Below are positions 4,841 to 28,575 of a DNA stretch of 64,000 nt, piece after piece (the stretch's first letter is position 1; every line of letters starts with the position of its first letter). The translations under genes and the position numbers were made by a program. This DNA is from Aplysia californica (Eukaryota): NCBI RefSeq assembly GCF_000002075.1, contig NW_004797961.1, forward strand, positions 107,017 to 171,016, given 5' to 3'. A model generated the notes under the pieces. That model worked only from the letters and a program-made list of their open reading frames with translations, did no database searches and was not told the DNA's origin.

Positions 4841-4927
4841 CAACAGACAGAGGAGCGAACCGTCTCGCAGCGTACGGTCTCGGCAGACGGTGCAATAAAA
4901 CTAGCACTAGTACGACAAACACAATCA

Positions 4928-7573
4928 TCAAGTCTCTCTGCCGGGCTTGGACTTGTTGGGCCCCGGCGGGTTCTTCATGGCTCCCATCCTGGTCGGGTCT
5001 TGTGAGGGGTAGTGGACGGCGCGGCCGTGGCCTGGAGGGGGACCACCGGGGCCACCGTGCGGGGGCTGCTGTTGTTGTTGCTGTTGCGGAGGGGGCATGC
5101 CTGGTGGGGGCCTCATGGGCAGGACTCCGGGCGGGGGTGGGGGCATTCGCATTCCTGTGGGGGTGGGGGGGAGGGCAAACGAAGGAAAATGTGTGTGTGT
5201 CACAACCATGTTTTGTTTGAGTACAGGAAGTACATCAATAATAAATAATAATATATTATTATATATATAATAAATTTAAATTAATTTTTTTTTAAAACGA
5301 TCCCAGAAGGGCACTTTGGTTTACAATGGTAAACACACATAAATATATATAATTATAAATACATGAACACATAAATAATTATAAATACATACATAAATAA
5401 AAATACACAATATTACACCAATGCAGAAGAATTTCACAACATTGCCAATGCTGGTCGCCACTGTGCACCGCCCAGTTTTTTTTGCTCCAGGGTTTTCGTG
5501 TCTTGCTCAAGGACACACCCCAGTGACCACCCATCCGATCCCTGTGTCACCGCCACTTGGTCAAAAAGTAAGACACACAGACAGAAACAACAGAGGAAAA
5601 GTAAACAAGCAGGACTTAACAGTGGCGCTCTCCAACTTTAACCACCAGCTTGTCATTTTTCGTAAGAGTTTTACGGCACTTGCAACACAATAAGGTCATA
5701 TAAGTGCCGAAGATTAGAGGTGTTACAAGAGAGTAACAAACACAAAAAAGGAGGGGGGAGATCAGGACGACAGATGTTTCATATGAAAGAAGGAGCAAAC
5801 CACACCAGAGCACCCTCCAACTCTAAATCACCAGTTTGTCACGCATGACCAGCCGCGGGGGTTTGTTTGAGTAAAGGGAATCACATTATCCACACCATAA
5901 TGAGTGCAGGCGAAAAGTAAGACAGAAAGACAGAAACAAAGAGATGGAAAGAAAGAAAAAAAGTAGGACAGAAAGACAGAAATACAGAGGGTAAGAAAAA
6001 GAAAAGTGGGACTGAAGAAGTAAACCACCTAAATGATCTGAATTGAGAGGAGTAATGTCAAGCAAGTGTCGGTGAAATGGGGATCAGATGGGTGGTCACT
6101 GGAGTGTGTCTTTGAGCAAGAAACGACAACCCTAGCTCAAAATAGAGGACGCTGCACAGTGGCGACTGACAGTGGCATGGTTGTTAAATGTTCTGTATTT
6201 GTGTAACAGTGTGTATTTATGTATGTACGTATTCATAATTATGTATTGATGTATGAATATGTATGTTTGCCATTGTAAACCAAAGTGCCCCTCTGAGACA
6301 AATAAAAGTGTAATTATTTTTTAAAATATTTTATAGGAGGGTAAAACATTAACAAAATAAGCACACCATGGATCCATTAGAACAACTCGCAAGCACACAA
6401 TGGATCCATTAGAACAACTCGCAAGCACATAATGGATCCATTAGAACAAATCGCAAGCACACAATGGATCCATTAGAACAACTCGCAACTTCAATGCACA
6501 AGACATGAGTGGTTTTTGTCTCATTTTCTCATAAGGCGAATCTTTTGGTAAGAACTGTTCCAAAAAGGATCTTTTTCTAAATGCTTCAAAGTAGAAAAAT
6601 AAAGTAGAAAAAGCAGGATACTGTGTGGCTCAATGAGTTACAGTAAAAAAAAATATATATAAATTAGTGCTTGGCAACAGCTCTGGTGTGGTTTGCTCCT
6701 TCTTTCCCCATCAAACATCTATCATCCTTATAATTGCTTTCCCCTTTTTTTTCCCTTCTTTGTTATTTCCTCAAGTAACACCTCTTATCTTCCCCTGAGA
6801 ACTATTTAGTCCAAAGCGCACTCTACAGATAAGTACACTTTGGACAAATAAATAGTCCTGAGGTGACATAATCTTTGGCACCTATAAGACCTCATTGTGC
6901 AGCAAGTGCCGTGTAAAATTCTCACACCCCCCCCCCCCCTAAAATAGGGGGGGGGGGAGGAGAGAATGAAAAATAAAAAAATTAAAAAACCCACTTTGGA
7001 ATAGACCACCCAGCCAAATTCACTTCAAGTACAGACAAAGAAGTAAGACACACATACCGGGTGGAGGCGGTCCTCTGGGCATGCCAAAGGGCATGGGTGG
7101 TGGAGGGCCCCTCATCATGGGAGGGAAGCCCCGTGGGCCGCCTGGAGGACCCCCTGGTGGGCCGTTTGGTGGGCCGCCGGGCGGGCCACGCATGGGTCCT
7201 CGGGGCGGGAGGCCAAACGGCTGAGGGGGTGGGACTCCGGGGCCGGCCAGGTTGAAGTAGTTGTTGGTCAGCTCTTCTGGCGGCATCGGCAGTGCTGGGG
7301 GGAGATGGGAGGACATATTAATAGGTAGCGTAAACAGCCATTTAGAGACAAATTTGATCAAATTTTAAACAGCTACCATTTTCTTTAAAATTGACGGAGA
7401 GGTTAAAGAATGGGTACCGAATTTCTCAGGAGATATAGGCCTTTCATATGGAACAGATACATTTGACATACGGCAACTTGGAAAATTCACTTTCTGGTAC
7501 CTAATATTAGTATGATCAGTTTACTGAGCGTGTGAAGAGTTTTGTGAGTGTGGGGTTGTTGGTTTTTTTTGTT

Positions 7574-7605
<32 letters not shown>

Positions 7606-9451
7606 GTGTGTATGTTACTGTGTGATTTTTAACAAATTGGGGAGAAAAAAAACAGCCAAATTTTAGAAGAATTTTAGGTAGTCCACCCTGTGATTCGCCA
7701 TTAAACAAAAGCATACTCCAAACACAAATGAAATTTGTTGTAAAGAAAAGATGGAAAACATCCAGCACCGACATCAGAGCGAAAACTGGTTGATTTTAAT
7801 TAGTTTTATTTTTAACTTTAGTCTGTTTTAGTTCATACTATTGTTTTTTAAAAAAAGTTTTATTTAAACAAGTTTTCTCGTGCGCAACCTGAAACACTAT
7901 TTCAATTTGACACCTCCCCCCCCCCACCCAACTGAATTGGAGTAAAGCAGTCTGCTGCCTGCCCACTATGTGACTACCACTCAGAGACAGTGGAACATCG
8001 TCTGTTCTTCTGTAGAAAACTAACCGATCTGGGGGAATGTTTTCTTCCCAAGCTACCCCACACACCCAACTGCCTCTACTCCTCAAGACAACAATTAGGA
8101 CAGACAGTCAGCTATTACAGAATGGCATCATGCAGAACAGTTAATGCTCAGATGCTACTGGATCGCTAACAAAAACAACAACATCCGGCGGTGGCATCTC
8201 TTTGGGGAGGATCCAGGAAGGTTGGACTGCCTCACCCGCTAACCAAGAGAGGCAGTGGCCCTGGCGAAGAGCACGCTCTTCGGGACTCCAAACATTTTGA
8301 ACGGATAGGCTACCACACACACACACACACACAACAACAACGACACCCCCCCCCCCCCCCTTGAAAACACCTGAAATCAAGCAGGCAAAGCAAACCGGAG
8401 AACGTACCTTGAGGCAAGCCAGGTACAGGCTCCAGGGCAGGCTGGGGCGGACCCTCGCCCTTCTTCACCGCCAGCGTCTGCTGTCCCTGGGAGCGACCCC
8501 ACTTGATGTTCAGCCGCCGGCCACACAGGATGAGCTTGTTGAACGCCTTCTCCGCGGCCGCTTCCGCCGACGCCCGGTTGGTGAACTGCACAAACGCACA
8601 CTGCTGTTTCGCCACGTTGACGGAACGAATCTCACCGAACTGGTAAAAATAATCCCTGTGGAGGACAAAAAAACCCCGCACCCACACACAAATTAAAATC
8701 CCATCAACTTCAACAAAGACAGAGAAACTTGACTAACAAAGAACACACTTATTCTAGAGCAAAATACAGTAAAAAATTGTCCCAAGACAGCCCTCACCGT
8801 GGAGGAGAAAAGGGGCTGTCCTGGACAAGTGGATGTCTTGGAACTCACCTTCATAATGAAGGGGAAAAAAATTTTAAAAGGGGGGGGGGGTGAAGAGGGA
8901 AGTGGTCCTTTGTAGAGGTGATTGTCTTTTGACATGTGGCTATTTGAGAAGGTTTGACTATACATGATACAAAGTGAAGAAATAAAGAAGTACCCACAAT
9001 TTTTTGAAAACTCACTCAAATGCTGACTGCTCCAGCACAGCCAGCAAAGGCTGAAAAGGATGCAGCATCCCAGCAGACAGGTGAGACACTCAAGAGAATT
9101 TACAACTTCCCACCGTGAAAAGTGAACTAAGATACTTTGTTTTAGTAAGAGTTTTACAGCACTTACAACACAATCAGGTCATGTAAGTGCCGAAGATCAG
9201 AGGTGTTACAAGGGAGTAACAAACAAAAAAAATAAGGAGAGATCAGGACGACAGATGTTTCATACGAAAGAAGGAGCAAACCACACCAGAGCACCCGCCA
9301 ACCACATACTTTGCATGCCAGAGACCAGAGCATTAACATTATACCATAGAATAGATGCTGGTAAATGGAAGGGGTGAACAGAATTGTTTCTAAAGATGAA
9401 GAGAAAAAAAAGCTGAACTTCTCAGAAAGAAAAATCATGATAATAAATTAT

Positions 9452-9483
<32 letters not shown>

Positions 9484-12400
9484 TTTCAGTCTGAATCACC
9501 ACAAATCTGAACACAACTAACCTCAACTCTGTTTCCCCGACTTTGTCCCCCAGATTTCCCACATAGAGGGTGGTGACTGTCTTGTCTTCCGGAGGCTCCA
9601 GCTTGGGCATGCTGCTGTAACGACTGAGAAGTTTGTCCGCTACCGGGTCATTCATTCCGTAAAATCTGTCCTTGATGTTCTGATCTGCCAAGGGGTCGTC
9701 TGGGTCTGTCGGCTTTTCGTGCCTGGAGGAAAAATAAACAATACACATCAGCCATATATATATGCAGTAATATACTTTTTTCTCTTTGCTAAACATTTTT
9801 GAATACAAAGTCACTACTCCACAACACAAAAGCATTGAAAAAAAGAACCCCTAAAATAAATCAAAAGACAAAATATCATTTACGACCCTTTAACAGGGTT
9901 TCTAAGGTACCATTGAACATTTAGCAAATGGTAGTAGGTCTACTGTTCTTTTGTTAAAAAAAACAAACCACCTAATGAACAATTGACTAACAAAATCTTA
10001 TCCTTGAGAATGTCTTCTTACGTTGGACTTTCATGCTCAGCTTCATAAAAAAACCCTCCTGCCTTCACATCTTCACATCAAATCAGTTCACCTGTCGACT
10101 CAAGCTCTAAGAAAGATTTCCCTTTCCGCCTTGTTCCAAACACATGCACGCACACATATCCCAGAAACAGGGATGCCAAATGATTTGGGGAAAAAAAAAC
10201 CTGAAAATGAGCGGAGCATCATATCTCACCTAACACGTACTTTGTAAAATCTTTAAATGAGCAAATAAAAACATTTCTCTTACCATTCCCCTTTCTTTTG
10301 TAAGTGTATGGAAAAACCAGAAAAAGCAGAAAAAAACTGCAGAAACTGCGTACCTGTAAGGACATTCCTGGCCACGCCGACACTCTCCTTTCACCCAAAA
10401 CGAGCAGATGTGAGGCCGATTTCTCTTGTAGTAAGGAGTTGTTCTTGCCAGTTTGAGCAACATGTCGCTAGGAGTCTGTGCCTTCCCCGCCAAAGCTCCC
10501 ACAGGCGAGATACCGTCACTGTTTGCTATCTGAAAAAAGTATTAGTTTCAGTAAAAGTTTTATGGCACTTGCAACACAAGTCACGTAAATGCTGAAGATT
10601 GGAGGTGTACAAGAGAGTAACAAACACAAAAAAGGAGGGAAGATAAGGACATTAGATGTTAGATAAGAAAGAAGGAGCAAACCACACCAAAGCACCCACC
10701 AACCATCCGCTATCTGAAAAAGGAACATGAAACAGATATTCACAACGGTCCAGCATCATGACTCTAGCCAAGAAAGGGGTCCCAAAAAATACATTAAATA
10801 CATCGCCAAAAATGAAAATTCTGCATTGACATACAATTCTCTAGGAATAAACATTTTCAACAATTCAAATCGATGCAGTTTAAAATCATGAACCGCCAAG
10901 CTAGCTAAACTGCCTACCTCTCTTTCCATATTCTGTGTGTAGTACTCTTTATTAACGTCGGATTTGGGCATGTTATCCTGGAGCTTCAAAGCAGCATCTC
11001 GAACCTGGACAGGCAAACCTGAAATTGCATAGAAGCATTTCTCATGAAATGTGCACACAGTAAGACATTTTCCCAAAAAATAAGCTACAAGGGTAGGGGA
11101 TGGGTGGGGTGGGGGGGAAAGAAGATCTTTTCACCTCTACTGACCTCTGCGGCTCATCCAAAGAGGCCAGAACACTACGTACAAATACACTTTCATCAAG
11201 GAAAGCTCAGAATATTCCTCAAAAAAAGGTATAATTTTTAAAATTAAAAAACCCAAAAAAAAAACCCAACCCCCCTCCCCCTAAAAAAACAAACAAAAAA
11301 CCCCATCAAACTTCCTTGCGTAGAAGGCAGAAGTTGGACCTATAAAATATGAGTTTGATTCCTGGTTCTGTCAAACAGGACGCCACACCCTTAACTTAAA
11401 TTAAAAAGTACTTTATCTATTTGCCTTGGTTTCTCAAGCTGCAAAAAAGATACTTGGCAAATCAACACAGACAAAATTTGGCAAAAATACTGGTGTGCGC
11501 TTAGCCAATGGGCAAAGTGTAGTACGCCTCCAGGGGGGGCTGAAGTAGTACACCGGAAAGAGCAGGCCAGCCAAAAGAGTAATTGTTTAGTTTTAGTAAG
11601 AGTTTTACGGCACTTGCAACACAATAAGGTCATATAAGTGCCCAGGATTTGAGGTGTTACAAGAGAGGTAACAAACACAAAATAGAAGGAGGGGAGAAAA
11701 GGACGACAGATGTTTGATAGGAAAAAAGAGCACACCACACTAGAGCACTCACCAACCACCCTCAAAAGAGTAATTGAGAAGACCTGTGAACATTTAGGGA
11801 GACAAAATACTACACACAAGCATTTCAACTTTCACAATTCAAGAGTCTACAAAAACAAAAATATCAGTTAATAGCAAATGAGTTTTTCCAGGGTTGGATT
11901 ATGATATGTCAGCCAGAGATGATGTTAGTTTTAGTACGGTTTTACGGCGCTCACAACTGCATAAGGTCATATGAACGCCAAGGGGTGGATGTCAACAGAG
12001 AAGTACAAACAGCAAGAGGTGAGGTAGGAGCAACACTTGGTCAACACAGTTAAAGACTTTCAGTGCGATACTCGAGGCAGTGTGGTGAAATCCGGCGCTC
12101 GTCAAAACAATGAAATTGGAGAAACTGGCATTTTTCTGCCAGTTTGGCAATTTTTATCGAATTTTTTTTTTTTTTTTTGCCGAACACCAATGTTGTTCAA
12201 TAAGGAACACATTTCTGGGGGGATTTTACTGGAAAAATGTTGATTAAAGTCATAAAAATGTATGTTTTCAGTTTCCACGGACTCTAAAGCTAAGGAGAAA
12301 ACTAAATTTTTGGCAGCCATTTTCTCACTAACCTTTTTTTAAAAATCTGAAACCAGGTGACCCCCACCTCCTTCATTTGCAAATTTCTCGATTTGTATTC

Positions 12401-15400
12401 AAGACAAATGGATATTTTTCTCATCCAAAGCAAGACAGATGATCAAGCTTTAAGACGAGCGCCTGATTCCACCACATCGGGACACATATATTCTCAATCA
12501 ACTTATATATTTAAAAAAACAAGCGCCAACTCTCAATGTCACGTAACGACAAACTCAAACATACCATATTCAAGGTCCAAGAGACACGTCTGACAAACGT
12601 TTTTCATTTTGCTACACGTCTGGCATACTTCCGTCTTCTTGAATCTCATCCTGGCTCCAGGGCACCATTTGAATACAGTGAATGGTCGGGCACAGATCTT
12701 GCATTCTTTGCCATATTTTTCTTTCATCTGATGACAGAATTGAATTCAATGATAGTTTACATGTACTTTTTTTACTTGCAAAAACTTAAATTCACATTTA
12801 ATTTACACTTGTATTTATTAAGATGTGTGTATATAATCTGTGAGCATGACTTAAATACGACCACTGAAATAGATGTGACAAAACAAATTTGTTAAATTAC
12901 TATCCAGTATAATTTTTTTTTTAAATTAAAAAAATCAAAGTCTGATAGAACTTTAAAAAGCTTCAATTTTTCTCCCCCCCCCCCCCTACATTTCCAATGG
13001 TAAGTTATTAGACAATTCTGTAATTATTTTTAAAAAATAGGCCTACGATATAAACCGTTTTTGATAAAAGTAAAATAATTGTCACTGACAAAAAAAAACT
13101 TACCATCCGAATGTATGGATTGTCACCGAGACACGTCTGACAGAGTATAGGGAATTCCTGAAAAAAAAAGATAGCAACCATTATATTTAGCATGACAGAA
13201 CAAAATAAAACATGATAATTATATATGTGTAGTAAACAAATAGCCTATGTGTACCTTTCTGACATCAAAATCAAAAGAACATTCTGAGCGAAAAAAAGGA
13301 AGGACTTCTGTAACGAGTGACTACCCCAACAAACACAATAAAGAAGAGACCAAACCCTAACCTAAACCCTAATCATAACCCTACCCCTCTCCCCTGACTC
13401 CTCTGTTCTACTCTGTCTCATAGTGGTCGCTCGTTACGGAAGTCCTCCTGAAAAAAAAAAAACCCTCTCTGCCAGGTGGCCAGGTTTACAGCAGTCTGGA
13501 GACAATATACGCCTTGAAATGACTACAGTGTCAGTGAAGTGAGTAGGATCCCTGGACTTCCAGGACTAGTCTAGTCACAATTAGTATATATATCGCATTA
13601 TAGGCCTAGGCCTAGACCTAGATCTATTTACCTCAGGCTACCTAATTTTTTAGAAAATTAGTAGACACCTAAAAAAATAAGTATAGATCTAGATTTTTTT
13701 TAAATGCGGACAGACAAGTGCACTCTATACAAACTATAAACTATAGAGGCCCAGAATAAGCCTTATGGTATTGAACTGGATCCAGCTAAAAGAAAGCAGA
13801 CTAGATCTAGATTAGATAGATCTACAGTCTAAAGTACAGTGTAGGCCTACAGACTAACTGTTGCTGTACTGAGTAGGCTACTGAGACTGTGATAGCACTG
13901 TAGATTCTGTGCTAGTGCTAGGCATAGGCATCAAAATGGAAAGCAAATATACATATCTGATCCGGTAAAAACTTTGCGTTTGCCAAACTTTGGGCCTACT
14001 TTCAGACCGGTAAGATCGAACTTTGGCGGATCGAACACCGAACGAAGCTGGAACTACTTTTGAGTCTTGCTCAGTGCTTCCACCAGCTGAAGCTGAAAAG
14101 TAAGGAAAATTCTGCTGCGGCCAGCAGGGTCCAGGGACAGCGGCCCAGTAGGGGATTCCGCACACGGCCTGCACCAACGCGCATTTGCAGAAAGCTCTAA
14201 TCAAAATTCTGAAATTTGCTTCCAAATTTTTGTCCTCTGGTGTTGCCTTCGCCCCCCCCCCCCGAGTGTATCTTTAAAAAAATAAAATAATCCCCTCCCC
14301 TATTCCGTAGTCCTATACTTCACAACGCAGAAACTCCAACTAAAGACGGTCTTAGCTCACACGATGCCTCATTTATTTATGATGCGAAAGCGCGCAGGTT
14401 CAGTGACCGGTCACGATGCCAGCCAGACAATCTAAAAATTGGACGACGCTTGTATTTTCGTTTCTTTCTTTCCCACACGTGACAGCACAGGGACGAGTCC
14501 GAGTGTTGATTAAATTTTATTTGCACGGCAACACAGCGTTTACACTGTACAACCTGCATGTCACAAATGTTGCGTTATCAGACTACCGCTGGCAAACGGC
14601 GGTAACGAAAGCGAAAGTAGATCTTGATTTTCCCGATCGAGCATCTGTGTCACATACACTTCCGCCTGCCGCCATAGCCGCCTGTTCGCGTGAAACATAC
14701 TCACCGACAGGGAAAAGGTGAACGAATATAATATCACAATCGCGACCGGCAAAAATGAAGTTACTGACCTTATCGGACTTGGTTTTCAAATATTCCATTT
14801 CCGCCACACTGATACTATTTTGGCAAAAGATGGGACTGAGATAAAATTAGGTTTCCTCGCCCAAGCTGAATCTCGTATTTTTCGCATTCCAGGATGCATA
14901 TTTTTTCATGAAAAGTCGTATTCGCGTATTTTCGCCAAAAAATCGTACTAAAATATGTAAAATCGTACTGGTAGGCATCTCTGCTAGATCTAGGCCTACT
15001 ACTAGTCTAGGCTAGATCTACAGTCAAACTGGCCCTGACGGCCACCTCTACAATTGGTCACTTTCCATTCCCCCCATTATGTTTTTTCTATATTTAACTG
15101 TGTATAACGGGCACCTGTCCAACGCGGCCGCCATATTTCAACACACAACCCCTATCACACCTGTCTTAGACGGCCACCTTTGACTCCATAACGTTTTGTC
15201 ACATAAAGTTTGCATTGGCCTCTGGCGTTGTGAGTTGTGGGCGAGCCGTCATAATTCAATCACCTGTCGTTGTTTTTAAAGGTAGTCCCTCCAACCGATC
15301 ATGTTGCGTAGGCCCCTCCCACTATTGACCGTTCATTAGCTACCAATTTAATTTTCAGCTGCTGGTGAGGTTGCGTGTGATCCCTTATAACCCATAAGCC

Positions 15401-16096
15401 CCGCCCAGAACTCATACACAAATCGTAAGTGAGATAAGTGGTCACTGTTTACCCAGTCTGTAACAAAGTAACAAAAAGGACGTCAACATGAACTTGTGAC
15501 TTGTGACTTGTGACAGAAGCGTCGCTCGTTCTCCGACTCCGAGTGGTGGCAACCCAAGGACCCATGTGTTTGTTTTAATATGGCACTCGGTCTTCCTCGT
15601 CTGAAAATTTGGTTGTATTGTCACCCTTAAAACCAGCAACAAAATAAAAATTACAGACAAAATACAAACCAACAACAACAACAATGACAATGCTGCTACT
15701 TTCGATTGGGACCTCAGATGGGAATGAGAATGGTTTGTTTTCTTTCATCTTGATCAGTCCTGCCTAAGACAGCCACCTGTGTTATACTGCCACTTTTCTC
15801 CTTGACAATGTGTGGCCGTCTTACACAGGTTTGACTGTACTACAAATTGTTATTGCACTGGAGTTGGAGTTAGGGAAAGTCACTGCTTGGTTATCGATAT
15901 TTGGATAGATTGGTCAATCTCTAGAACAGGACGTTCAGCTTCTTCTCAAAATTAAGAAAAAGAACAGATCAACTAAAAACAAATTATCTGTTGTTATTTT
16001 CAAACTCAGAGTGACATAGGAAGGTAAACTAGATAAACTCACAGCATCTTCCCAATTTTGTCTGTTGTACGTGTTTGCTCCCTTAGACGTCGCCAT
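4928..16096 (-). CDS. RBM22: Pre-mRNA splicing factor RBM22 (Cwc2/Slt11 family), 9 coding exons, 486 aa
   Basis: Exons 16096-16043, 13157-13104, 12727-12565, 11018-10918, 10529-10354, 9722-9522, 8655-8408, 7294-7058, 5154-4928; all GT-AG with matching phases (1461 nt). Motifs: [58 protein letters not shown] finger [24 protein letters not shown] (TLYVGNL...CAFVQF), Pro-rich tail with [11 protein letters not shown]. Confidence 0.97.
5300..5558 (-). mobile_element. SINE-like family B, inverted copy
   Basis: Reverse complement of 6050-6315. Confidence 0.7.
6050..6315 (+). mobile_element. SINE-like family B (inverted copy ~5300-5558; interrupted copies ~24853-25440 and ~27563-28150)
   Basis: GGATCAGATGGGTGGTCACTGG, GTGTGTC(C/T)TTGAGCAAG, (TATG)n and CCAAAGTGCCC..CTG(A/G)GACAAAT tail. 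Confidence 0.75.
6361..6488. repeat. 32-bp tandem repeat x4
   Basis: GCACACAATGGATCCATTAGAACAACTCGCAA units, contiguous with no spacers. Confidence 0.92.
10539..10708 (-). mobile_element. Short retroposon family A inserted at the RBM22 exon 5 acceptor
   Basis: 13-bp TSD GCTATCTGAAAAA at 10525-10537 and 10709-10721. Confidence 0.88.
11586..11762 (-). mobile_element. Short retroposon family A (other copies ~5661, 6680, 9139, 24828, 25689, 27539, 28399, 29091, 30901, 34332, 39061, 39537, 39765, 41518)
   Basis: 14-bp TSD CAAAAGAGTAATTG (11572-11585, 11763-11776); head GGGTGGTTGG..GTGCTCTGGTGTGG; tail GTGCCGTAAAAC plus (ACTAAA)n. Confidence 0.88.
12081..12473 (+). mobile_element. MITE family F
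   Basis: TIRs GTGGTGAAATCCGGCGCTCGTC / GACGAGCGCCTGATTCCACCAC. Confidence 0.8.
13298..13448. mobile_element. Short MITE with ~26-bp imperfect TIRs and a CCCTAA-like core
   Basis: GGACTTCTGTAACGAGTGACTA / TGGTCGCTCGTTACGGAAGTCC. Confidence 0.65.
15021..15837. mobile_element. Tc1/mariner-like non-autonomous element
   Basis: TA-CAGTCAAAC...GACGGCCAC and GTGGCCGTC...GTTTGACTG-TA; TA target duplication. Confidence 0.8.
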
Positions 16097-25286: not shown

Positions 25287-25773
25287 CTGTATTTGTGTAA
25301 TATTGTATATTCATGTATGTATTTATGTATGTGCACGTATTGATAATTAAATGTATTTATGTATGCATATGTATGTTTGTCATTTTAAACCAAAGTGCCC
25401 TTCTGGGACAAATGGAAGTGTAATTTATGTTGGGTTTTTTTTTTTATTCTTTCCTATCCAACATCTATCATCCTTATCTCCCCTCTTTCTTTTTTTGTGT
25501 TTGTTACTCTCTTGTAACACCTCTAATCTTCGGCACTTATATGACCTTATTGTGTTGCAAGTGCCGTAAAATGCTTACTTTAAAAAAATCCCTGTCCAGA
25601 GGAATTAGCCTACCGACACCTTTTTTCACTTCATTCCATGAACTTAAATAATAATAATATCATCGGCCAACTGTTCAAATGTACAAGGTGGGTGGTTGGT
25701 GGGTGCTCTGGTGTGGTTTGCTTTTTCTTTCCTATCAAACATCTATCATCCTTATCTCCCCTCCTTTTTTATT

Positions 25774-25873
25774 NNNNNNNNNNNNNNNNNNNNNNNNNNN
25801 NNNNNNNNNNNNNNNNNNNNNNNNNNNNNNNNNNNNNNNNNNNNNNNNNNNNNNNNNNNNNNNNNNNNNNNNN
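25774..25873. other. Assembly gap (100 N)
   Basis: Run of N. Confidence 1.
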
Positions 25874-26666: not shown

Positions 26667-28398
26667 GCGAACACCTGATTGGTCCTCCCCGGAGGACTCG
26701 GCAAGCCTTGGGGGAGTCTACTGGCTCAAAAAAGCAGTACAAATATTGTAATTGGTCACTTTTAAGCACAAGGGGGCTATCCTGAAAAATGCTGTTTTGA
26801 GAAAATCGAAGGTTAAGTTTTTGCCCTTTGTTCAGTTTCTTTAAAGGACAAAGAGAGTTTTCTCTATAACCAAACAAATGTATACCCCAATGAAACCAAA
26901 CTTCTCTTATAGGTAGGGCAATGCCCACTTTTGGTGTAGGTCAAGATTTCTGGAAACCCCCGAAATCTGGGTTAGCTCTCTTGTCATTAAAAGCGACTAA
27001 TTTTGACCCATACAGTCGAACCTGTGCGAAATAAATGATCAGCCACCAATCATTGTCAAGGAGAAAAGTGATCTTCCAAGACAAACATACCTATAATATA
27101 TATATATATATTTAAAAATTCCTAGGCGGGAAAATATGTGGTTGTGAGAGCATGCTCAACTGTATTTCGTTACAGTTGCAGTGCATGTAAATTTTGCACC
27201 GTGTTTGTCCATATTGTTACTGTTAGTGAGGGTGGAAGTCAGTCAATGAGTGAAAAGGGGGAGAAAAGGAGAGAGAGGGAGGGTGAGAGAGAGAGAGGAA
27301 GGGTGGGAGTGAGGGAGAGGGAGAGAAATAGAGAGAGAGGAAGAGTGAAAGAGAAAAATAGAGAGAGATGTCAATGAGATGCTATTTTATGCTGTGAAAG
27401 GATAGTTAATTTCTTCCAATGGAAGATTGATAATGATAAGGTACCATTTGTCTTTTCTTGTCTCTCTATGGAGATGGAGAACATGCACACATCATGTACA
27501 TACATAGTAAATGTATCTTTCACTGTGTTTGTCCAGACGGGTGCTCTGGTGCGGTTTGCTCCAGTGGCTAAGTGAGCAGTGAGTTTAGACTCAAGTAATG
27601 TCAAGCAAGTGTCGGTGACACGGGGATCAGATGGGTGGTCACCGGGGTGTGTCCTTGAGCAAGACACGACAACCCTAGCTCAAAATACAGGGTGCTGCAC
27701 GGTGGCAACCGACAGTGGCATGGTTGTAAACTGTTCTGTATTTTTGTAAAAGTAAAGTTGTTCCCGCATCCGATCCGGACATTGGGGATTGCCTTGTTAG
27801 TGAGACAACTTCCTGGGCCTTCGGCATATTGTGGTAGGGTGACCAGTTCCTTTCCACGCAGCCTTTACTTCCCAAACTCAAAGTCAGGTACCCATTACTG
27901 CTGGGTGGGCAGGAGGGGGTGAAAAAAATGCGTGTCCGAACCAGGGCTCGAACCCGGACTATCCGCTTCGCACTAACCGCTCCGCCACCACACCCTCCTG
28001 TATTTGTGTAATATTGTATATTCATGTATGTATTTATGTATGTGCACGTATTTATAATTAAATGTATTTATGTATGCATATGTATGTTTGTCATTGTAAA
28101 CCAAAGTGCCCTTCTGGGACAAATGGAAGTGTAATTTATGTTGGGTTTTTTTTTTAATTCTTTCCTATCCAACATCTATCATCCTTATCTCCCCTCTTTC
28201 TTTTTTTGTGTTTGTTACTCTCTTGTAACACCTCTAGTCTTCGGCACTTATATGACCTTATTGTGTTGCAAGTGCCATAAAATGCTTACTTTAAAAAAAT
28301 CCCTGTCCAGAGGAATTAGCCTACCGACACCTTTTTTCACTTCATTCCATGAACTTAAATAATAATAATATCATCGGCCAACTGTTCAAATGTACAAG

Positions 28399-28575
28399 GT
28401 GGGTGGTTGGCGGGTGCTCTGGTGTGGTTTGCTTTTTCTTTCCTATCAAACATCTATCATCCTTATCTCCCCTCCTTTTTTATTATGTTACTCTCTTGTA
28501 ACACCTCTATTCTTCGGCACTTATATGACCTTATTGTGTTGTAAGTGCCGTAAAACTCTTACTAAAACTAAAACT
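28399..28575 (+). mobile_element. Short retroposon family A
   Basis: 11-bp TSD AAATGTACAAG (28388-28398, 28576-28586). Confidence 0.85.

Follow-up and report, generated by a model that had tools for sequence, protein, structure and literature searches.

In the Aplysia californica RBM22 gene, an old short retroposon lies in sense orientation at the 3' end of intron 4, between two copies of a target-site duplication that contains the splice acceptor. The intron has probably taken the element in as an addition of 184 nt that is neutral and fixed. The site is a real case of an architecture already known from the merle allele, in a variant form that is sense, old, apparently fixed and recurrent. 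The gene occupies part of a 64,000-nucleotide stretch of contig NW_004797961.1 that was analysed as a whole (the window), and positions are those of the window. The features that matter are the following:

4927..16096, minus strand: RBM22 gene, nine coding exons, 486 aa.
10918..11018, minus strand: RBM22 exon 4, 101 nt (exon model; covered by the RNA-type contig X18-9).
10918/10917, minus strand: exon 4 donor, GAG/gtaggc (exon model).
10709..10721, minus strand: upstream copy of the target-site duplication, TTTTTCAG/ATAGC, holding the spare acceptor (10714/10713) with the native pyrimidine tract.
10538..10708, minus strand: family A short retroposon, 171 nt, sense to RBM22, in intron 4.
10540..10556, minus strand: element tail with putative branch-point motifs TTTAC (-23), CTGAA (-19) and CTAAT (-13).
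10525..10537, minus strand: downstream copy of the duplication, holding the acceptor in use (10530/10529; joint 10529-10918).
10516..10518, minus strand: TGA ending the predicted 189-aa upstream-acceptor isoform (exon model).
10354..10529, minus strand: RBM22 exon 5, 176 nt, intact (human RBM22 match, RNA-type contig, gastropod orthologues).

The nine-exon model keeps its frame open over all 486 aa, with GT-AG ends in 8 of 8 introns. Exon 5 matches residues 125-181 of human RBM22 at E 1e-28, the best named homologues of the protein are gastropod, and the exon 4 region has a single match in the 927-Mb genome. Five copies of the retroposon family lie in introns of this gene (5658-5821, 9136-9304, 10538-10708, 11587-11761 and 6680-6792); four are sense, and the sole antisense copy is the most decayed.

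The minus-strand 13-mer TTTTTCAGATAGC occurs in two identical copies, at 10721-10709 and 10537-10525, on either side of the sense element, where the sequence-only reading had placed them to the nucleotide. The duplicated segment comprises 8 nt of intron and 5 nt of exon and lies across the intron 4/exon 5 boundary; the acceptor is contained within it, as in merle. The insertion had been described as falling inside the exon; since the duplication straddles the boundary, insertion into the exon and insertion into the pyrimidine tract are names for one event. Behind the downstream copy stands an intact exon 5, as claimed. The upstream acceptor is, also as claimed, out of step with exon 5: its use would add 184 nt and yield a 189-aa product ending at the TGA at 10518-10516. 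Exon 5 runs on for 162 nt past this stop and four further junctions follow, a placement shared with the stop codons of autoregulatory poison splice events.

Elsewhere in the window, 15 further copies or fragments match the 171-nt element (10708-10538) with 73-88% identity. In the genome, exact motif matches number 11,773 for the family's tail and 19,090 for its head. Copies have a start in common, GTGG(G/A)TGG, and end in ACTAAA-type tails. Repeats of 8-18 nt at element-length spacing accompany 62 of 140 family loci (a few perhaps being tandem-copy artefacts), and duplications of at least 13 nt accompany 15 of the 140. Short length, high copy number, the common 5' end, target-site duplications of variable length and a simple-repeat 3' tail are all SINE-like. 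Rfam gave no match in 9000-12200 at E up to 1 and ARAGORN no tRNA in the window, both being searches that decayed heads escape; with no RNA-gene head found, the element is named a short non-autonomous retroposon, SINE-like. Mollusc SINE families have been described (PMC4758252), and the available part of that source allowed no assignment of family A to one of them. The best other match to the RBM22 copy, among 40 candidates scored out of 5455, is 88% identical; against the majority of 218 aligned copies it differs at 17 of 171 positions, by which measure it is old. Pyrimidines make up 64% of the element's sense strand, which has 2 AG in 171 nt; purines make up 64% of its antisense strand, which has 21.

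Spliced RNA uses the downstream junction. A 541-nt contig (X18-9, depth 147.7) covers exons 4, 5 and 6 without a break or a mismatch; in it 10918 is joined to 10529, 388 nt being skipped with canonical ends (CT..AC). It belongs to one of four runs examined (X5, X8, X11 and X18), all of assembled contigs, for which 15 of 61 joints are listed; no run is annotated as RNA, and X18 (organism label B), guessed to be RNA, is the only RNA-like run of the four. Other runs guessed to be RNA had word shares of 0.28-0.29 and were left out of the evidence. X5 (sample S2) and X8 (sample S5) are DNA-like, with intron cover, and their contigs span both element junctions (10271-10573 and 10678-11150 in X5; 10271-10631 and 10678-10883 in X8); X11 has no listed contig over either junction. 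Neither an empty allele or element-free joint nor, in the one RNA-type contig run of the four, a joint at the upstream acceptor (10713) is found among the 15 of 61 joints listed. Assembled contigs lose rare variants, decay would mask the upstream isoform in steady-state RNA, and the X18 junction would look identical had it come from an element-free allele; that it derives from an allele carrying the element is likely. The rescue by a duplicated acceptor that had been proposed thus finds support, in the RNA-type contig from 10918 to 10529 and in the presence of the element in other samples. As to the two junctions to be compared, from 10918 to 10529 and to 10713, the first was found in one RNA-type contig and the second was not seen: the competing poison acceptor was correctly read from sequence, but its use does not appear in the one RNA-type run, as far as joints are listed. 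The RNA joined at the second acceptor copy codes for the normal protein, so harm to RBM22 from the insertion is unlikely.

Other samples carry polymorphisms in this gene. The element's first base (10708) varies, from G to T on the gene strand in X5 and X8; further differences are 12 nt inserted after 9956 and two substituted letters at 9760-9762, near the exon 6 acceptor. An 866-nt contig of run X8 matches 10678-10883, with its remaining 660 letters not listed on the window, and is possibly another insertion allele in RBM22 intron 4, 35 nt from the donor.

The protein on either side of the junction is that of other gastropods. EREIANSDG, or a near variant at the same spacing, marks the exon 4/5 junction in gastropod orthologues, and the span of 43-44 aa is found in 85 of 86 motif-matched proteins (120 homologues examined). 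Because the junction is the orthologous one, intron 4 has kept its position and gained 184 nt with no sliding; the "intron-boundary sliding" of the sequence-only reading is a misnomer, mRNA junction and protein being unchanged relative to the orthologues. The beginning of the poison peptide occurs in none of the 120 homologous proteins, as is expected either way of clusters from other species.

Contrary to absorption, the better pyrimidine tract belongs to the acceptor for which no use was seen. The pyrimidine fraction at -5..-25 is 0.81 before the upstream copy, which did keep its long native tract as the sequence-only reading maintained, and 0.62 before the downstream copy; a 48-nt AG-free zone also precedes the former. 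The branch-like motifs are distributed the other way, with CTAAT (-13), CTGAA (-19) and TTTAC (-23) before the downstream copy and TTCAT (-15) only in the 60 nt before the upstream copy. That argument is weak by itself, because a strict CTRAY lies within 60 nt of one of the seven other RBM22 acceptors; the element tail is a plausible candidate for the branch point.

The sequence of events may have been as follows. Target-primed insertion between staggered nicks, one in the intron 8 nt from the boundary and one in the exon 5 nt from it, would have rebuilt the acceptor behind the element at once. The sense strand, being pyrimidine-rich and AG-poor with a branch-point-like tail, likely passes as intron, and the downstream copy would win on the strength of this intron-like character and of the putative branch adenosines of the tail at -13, -19 and -23. 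Exon definition would presumably favour the 176-nt exon over a 360-nt exon with a U/C-rich beginning, the first 184 nt of an exon opened at 10713 being intron-like. The upstream copy would persist as a cryptic site, any leak through it being frameshifted, a substrate for decay and devoid of regulatory role.

Such a leak might also be measurable, a few percent and unregulated, with decay removing the product and some RBM22 output lost. The richer tract and AG-free zone of the upstream acceptor, a stop codon followed by 162 nt of exon and four later junctions, and the example of merle dogs, in which a SINE at an acceptor makes competing sites (PMC7349775, available part), would all agree with this. 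It is nevertheless unlikely: the contig is unbroken over the exon 4/5 junction at depth 147.7, the upstream branch candidates are weak, and the insertion is old and apparently fixed in a single-copy spliceosome gene.

Much less probable again is co-option of the spare acceptor as an autoregulatory poison switch, with the RBM22 level shifting the choice between 10713 and 10529, as the sequence-only reading had suggested. RBM22 is a splicing factor, poison-exon feedback is common among splicing factors, and the upstream copy is still perfect despite the element's divergence of about 10%. At 10% divergence, however, a perfect 13-mer is expected about 1 time in 4 (0.9^13), and at 15 of 140 other family loci a duplication of at least 13 nt is kept; selection on the upstream 13-mer was rejected as a reading, being indistinguishable from the ordinary survival of a duplication. 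The base directly after the upstream copy (10708) varies between samples, use of the upstream acceptor is not seen among the joints listed, and no report of RBM22 poison-exon feedback was found in the literature (titles and abstract openings); in the available part of PMC12427521, RBM22 comes up only for a general effect on NMD. Autoregulation is unsupported, and perfect duplications of 13 nt are ordinary in this family. That the two 13-mers reflect a chance match or an assembly artefact instead of a target-site duplication is hardly credible, one such 13-mer having a probability of 3e-8 at a given place and about 1e-6 over 30 allowed positions, with element-length repeats at 62 of 140 family loci, both element junctions found in two other samples, and no point in favour of that reading found.

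Absorption into the 3' end of an intron is not unique to RBM22 in this genome. Element ends followed by YYYYNCAG were collected in four sets, sense tail and antisense head at 0-18 and 40-58 nt, giving 227 and 331 matches for the former and 387 and 316 for the latter; within 18 nt the raw rates are equal for both ends (227/11,773 and 387/19,090). Seventy loci per set were taken, these being the first listed places, on the largest contigs, with 1, 4, 2 and 0 duplicate or overlapping rows dropped (sense near, sense far, antisense near and antisense far), and every frame of at least 20 aa opening at the AG was scanned against Pfam (103, 95, 69 and 70 frames in the four sets). A host Pfam domain lies in a frame opening at the AG, which is presumed from that frame to be a used acceptor, at 9 of 70 sense loci at 0-18 nt (7 above the curated cut-off) and at 10 of 70 at 40-58 nt, a set in which two duplicate pairs remain; among antisense loci the counts are 0 of 70 at both distances. 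Pooled, 19 of 140 sense loci against 0 of 140 antisense loci have Pfam-matched exon starts (Fisher p 2e-6), some of the antisense loci having been judged by Pfam alone. Extrapolation gives about 29 Pfam-visible abutting cases among exact-tail copies alone, or about 25 (abutting) versus about 40 (40-58 nt) per 10,000 copies. Five matches were set aside: L142 (NapE, E 0.009, 0 stretches), L201 (DUF5316, below cut-off), L191 (inside the L054 exon), L089 (a reverse-transcriptase frame) and L299 (E 0.0025, below cut-off, starting at residue 16). With L201 and L299 counted, the comparison becomes 20 versus 1 of 140 (p 1e-5).

Near and far sense loci do not differ (9/70 versus 10/70, p 1.0). Targeting of the tail to the branch-point position, or its selection there, is thereby rejected; the absence of an abutting excess speaks for tolerance with an orientation bias, and for the same reason the sample gives no specific support to a branch-point role of the tail. 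Tolerance recurs in the sample for sense copies and is unseen for antisense copies, of which the purine- and AG-rich composition may be the cause.

Individual loci show the range of arrangements. At L104 (G000:C70:506018-506951, minus strand) the duplication AACTCCTCAG spans the acceptor around a sense copy, and the exon encodes a gelsolin repeat (E 0.0013; gelsolin-family gene). At L040 (G000:C518:338562-341602, minus strand), a candidate outside the Pfam test, TCTTTTCAGGT spans an acceptor-like AG followed by a purine-rich exon-like stretch. L124 had been flagged by script as spanning an AG and showed no clean duplication when read. Sense tails lie directly before exons at L048, L054, L059, L066, L109, L117, L127 and L129 (dynein, reelin, PHD, MFS, CDK5RAP3, astacin, kinase C-terminal and SLC52 domains), with the duplication, where found, in the pyrimidine tract. 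In the window itself a sense copy at 39714-39541 (minus strand), with an imperfect duplication of about 12 nt, ends about 20 nt before an exon-like stretch of 111 nt in another gene (39512-39402, minus strand; AG...GTGAGT, open frame). A near-identical stretch at 25447-25770 and 28158-28575, beside the N gap at 25774-25873, is perhaps an assembly duplication.

The comparisons that follow refer to the available portions of the sources cited. In the merle allele a SINE sits at the PMEL intron 10/exon 11 boundary, with a 15-bp duplication holding the acceptor (PMC7349775). RBM22 shares the acceptor-containing duplication (13 as against 15 bp), an acceptor behind the element that allows normal splicing, and a competing site whose use would exonise element sequence. 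The merle SINE is antisense, young and segregating, uses its poly(T) as pyrimidine tract, has the competitor acceptor within itself and sets the phenotype by tail length; the RBM22 element, in contrast, is sense, old and apparently fixed, lacks a poly(A/T) tail and contains just 2 AG, and its competitor is the upstream copy of the duplication. Four de novo Alu insertions in NF1 acceptors likewise put a retroposon with target-site duplication into a 3' splice site, at the AG or in the pyrimidine tract, but cause exon skipping and disease (PMC3219598), whereas the RBM22 insertion is spliced correctly. Introners, mostly DNA transposons, make a new intron in an exon with a donor of their own and an AG from the duplication (PMC11282704). 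RBM22 also owes to its target-site duplication the 3' AG that lets the element be spliced out; unlike them it gains no intron, the old donor at 10918 staying in use and the protein junction unchanged. Near human exons sense SINEs exceed antisense ones, which is ascribed to selection against antisense cryptic acceptors, and elements less than 20 bp from a mammalian acceptor are very likely harmful and scarce (PMC3088655). The present family has the same sense excess, but in the sample its sense copies occur about equally often abutting acceptors and at 40-58 nt from them. A fixed sense SINE that provides the branch point of an acceptor in a mollusc was not found reported in a literature that was mostly non-subscription and without supplements.

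The insertion probably matters little to RBM22 itself and is of value as a clean natural experiment: two identical AG acceptors lie 184 nt apart, and RNA shows splicing at the one whose pyrimidine tract is weaker. The pair tests the weight of branch point and exon definition in invertebrate acceptor choice. That the family as a whole is a splice-compatible cassette, sense copies of which have taken over as branch point and pyrimidine tract in dozens to hundreds of introns, is a tentative reading, rather less probable than its opposite; that, beyond this, an acceptor-spanning duplication gives such a cassette a one-step poison acceptor, of which RBM22 has made a feedback switch, is very improbable. 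The orientation contrast (19/140 sense, 0/140 antisense) suggests that a retroposon can replace the 3' ends of introns harmlessly, unlike what mammalian depletion of such insertions would lead one to expect, and the sample offers dozens of loci suited to lariat mapping.
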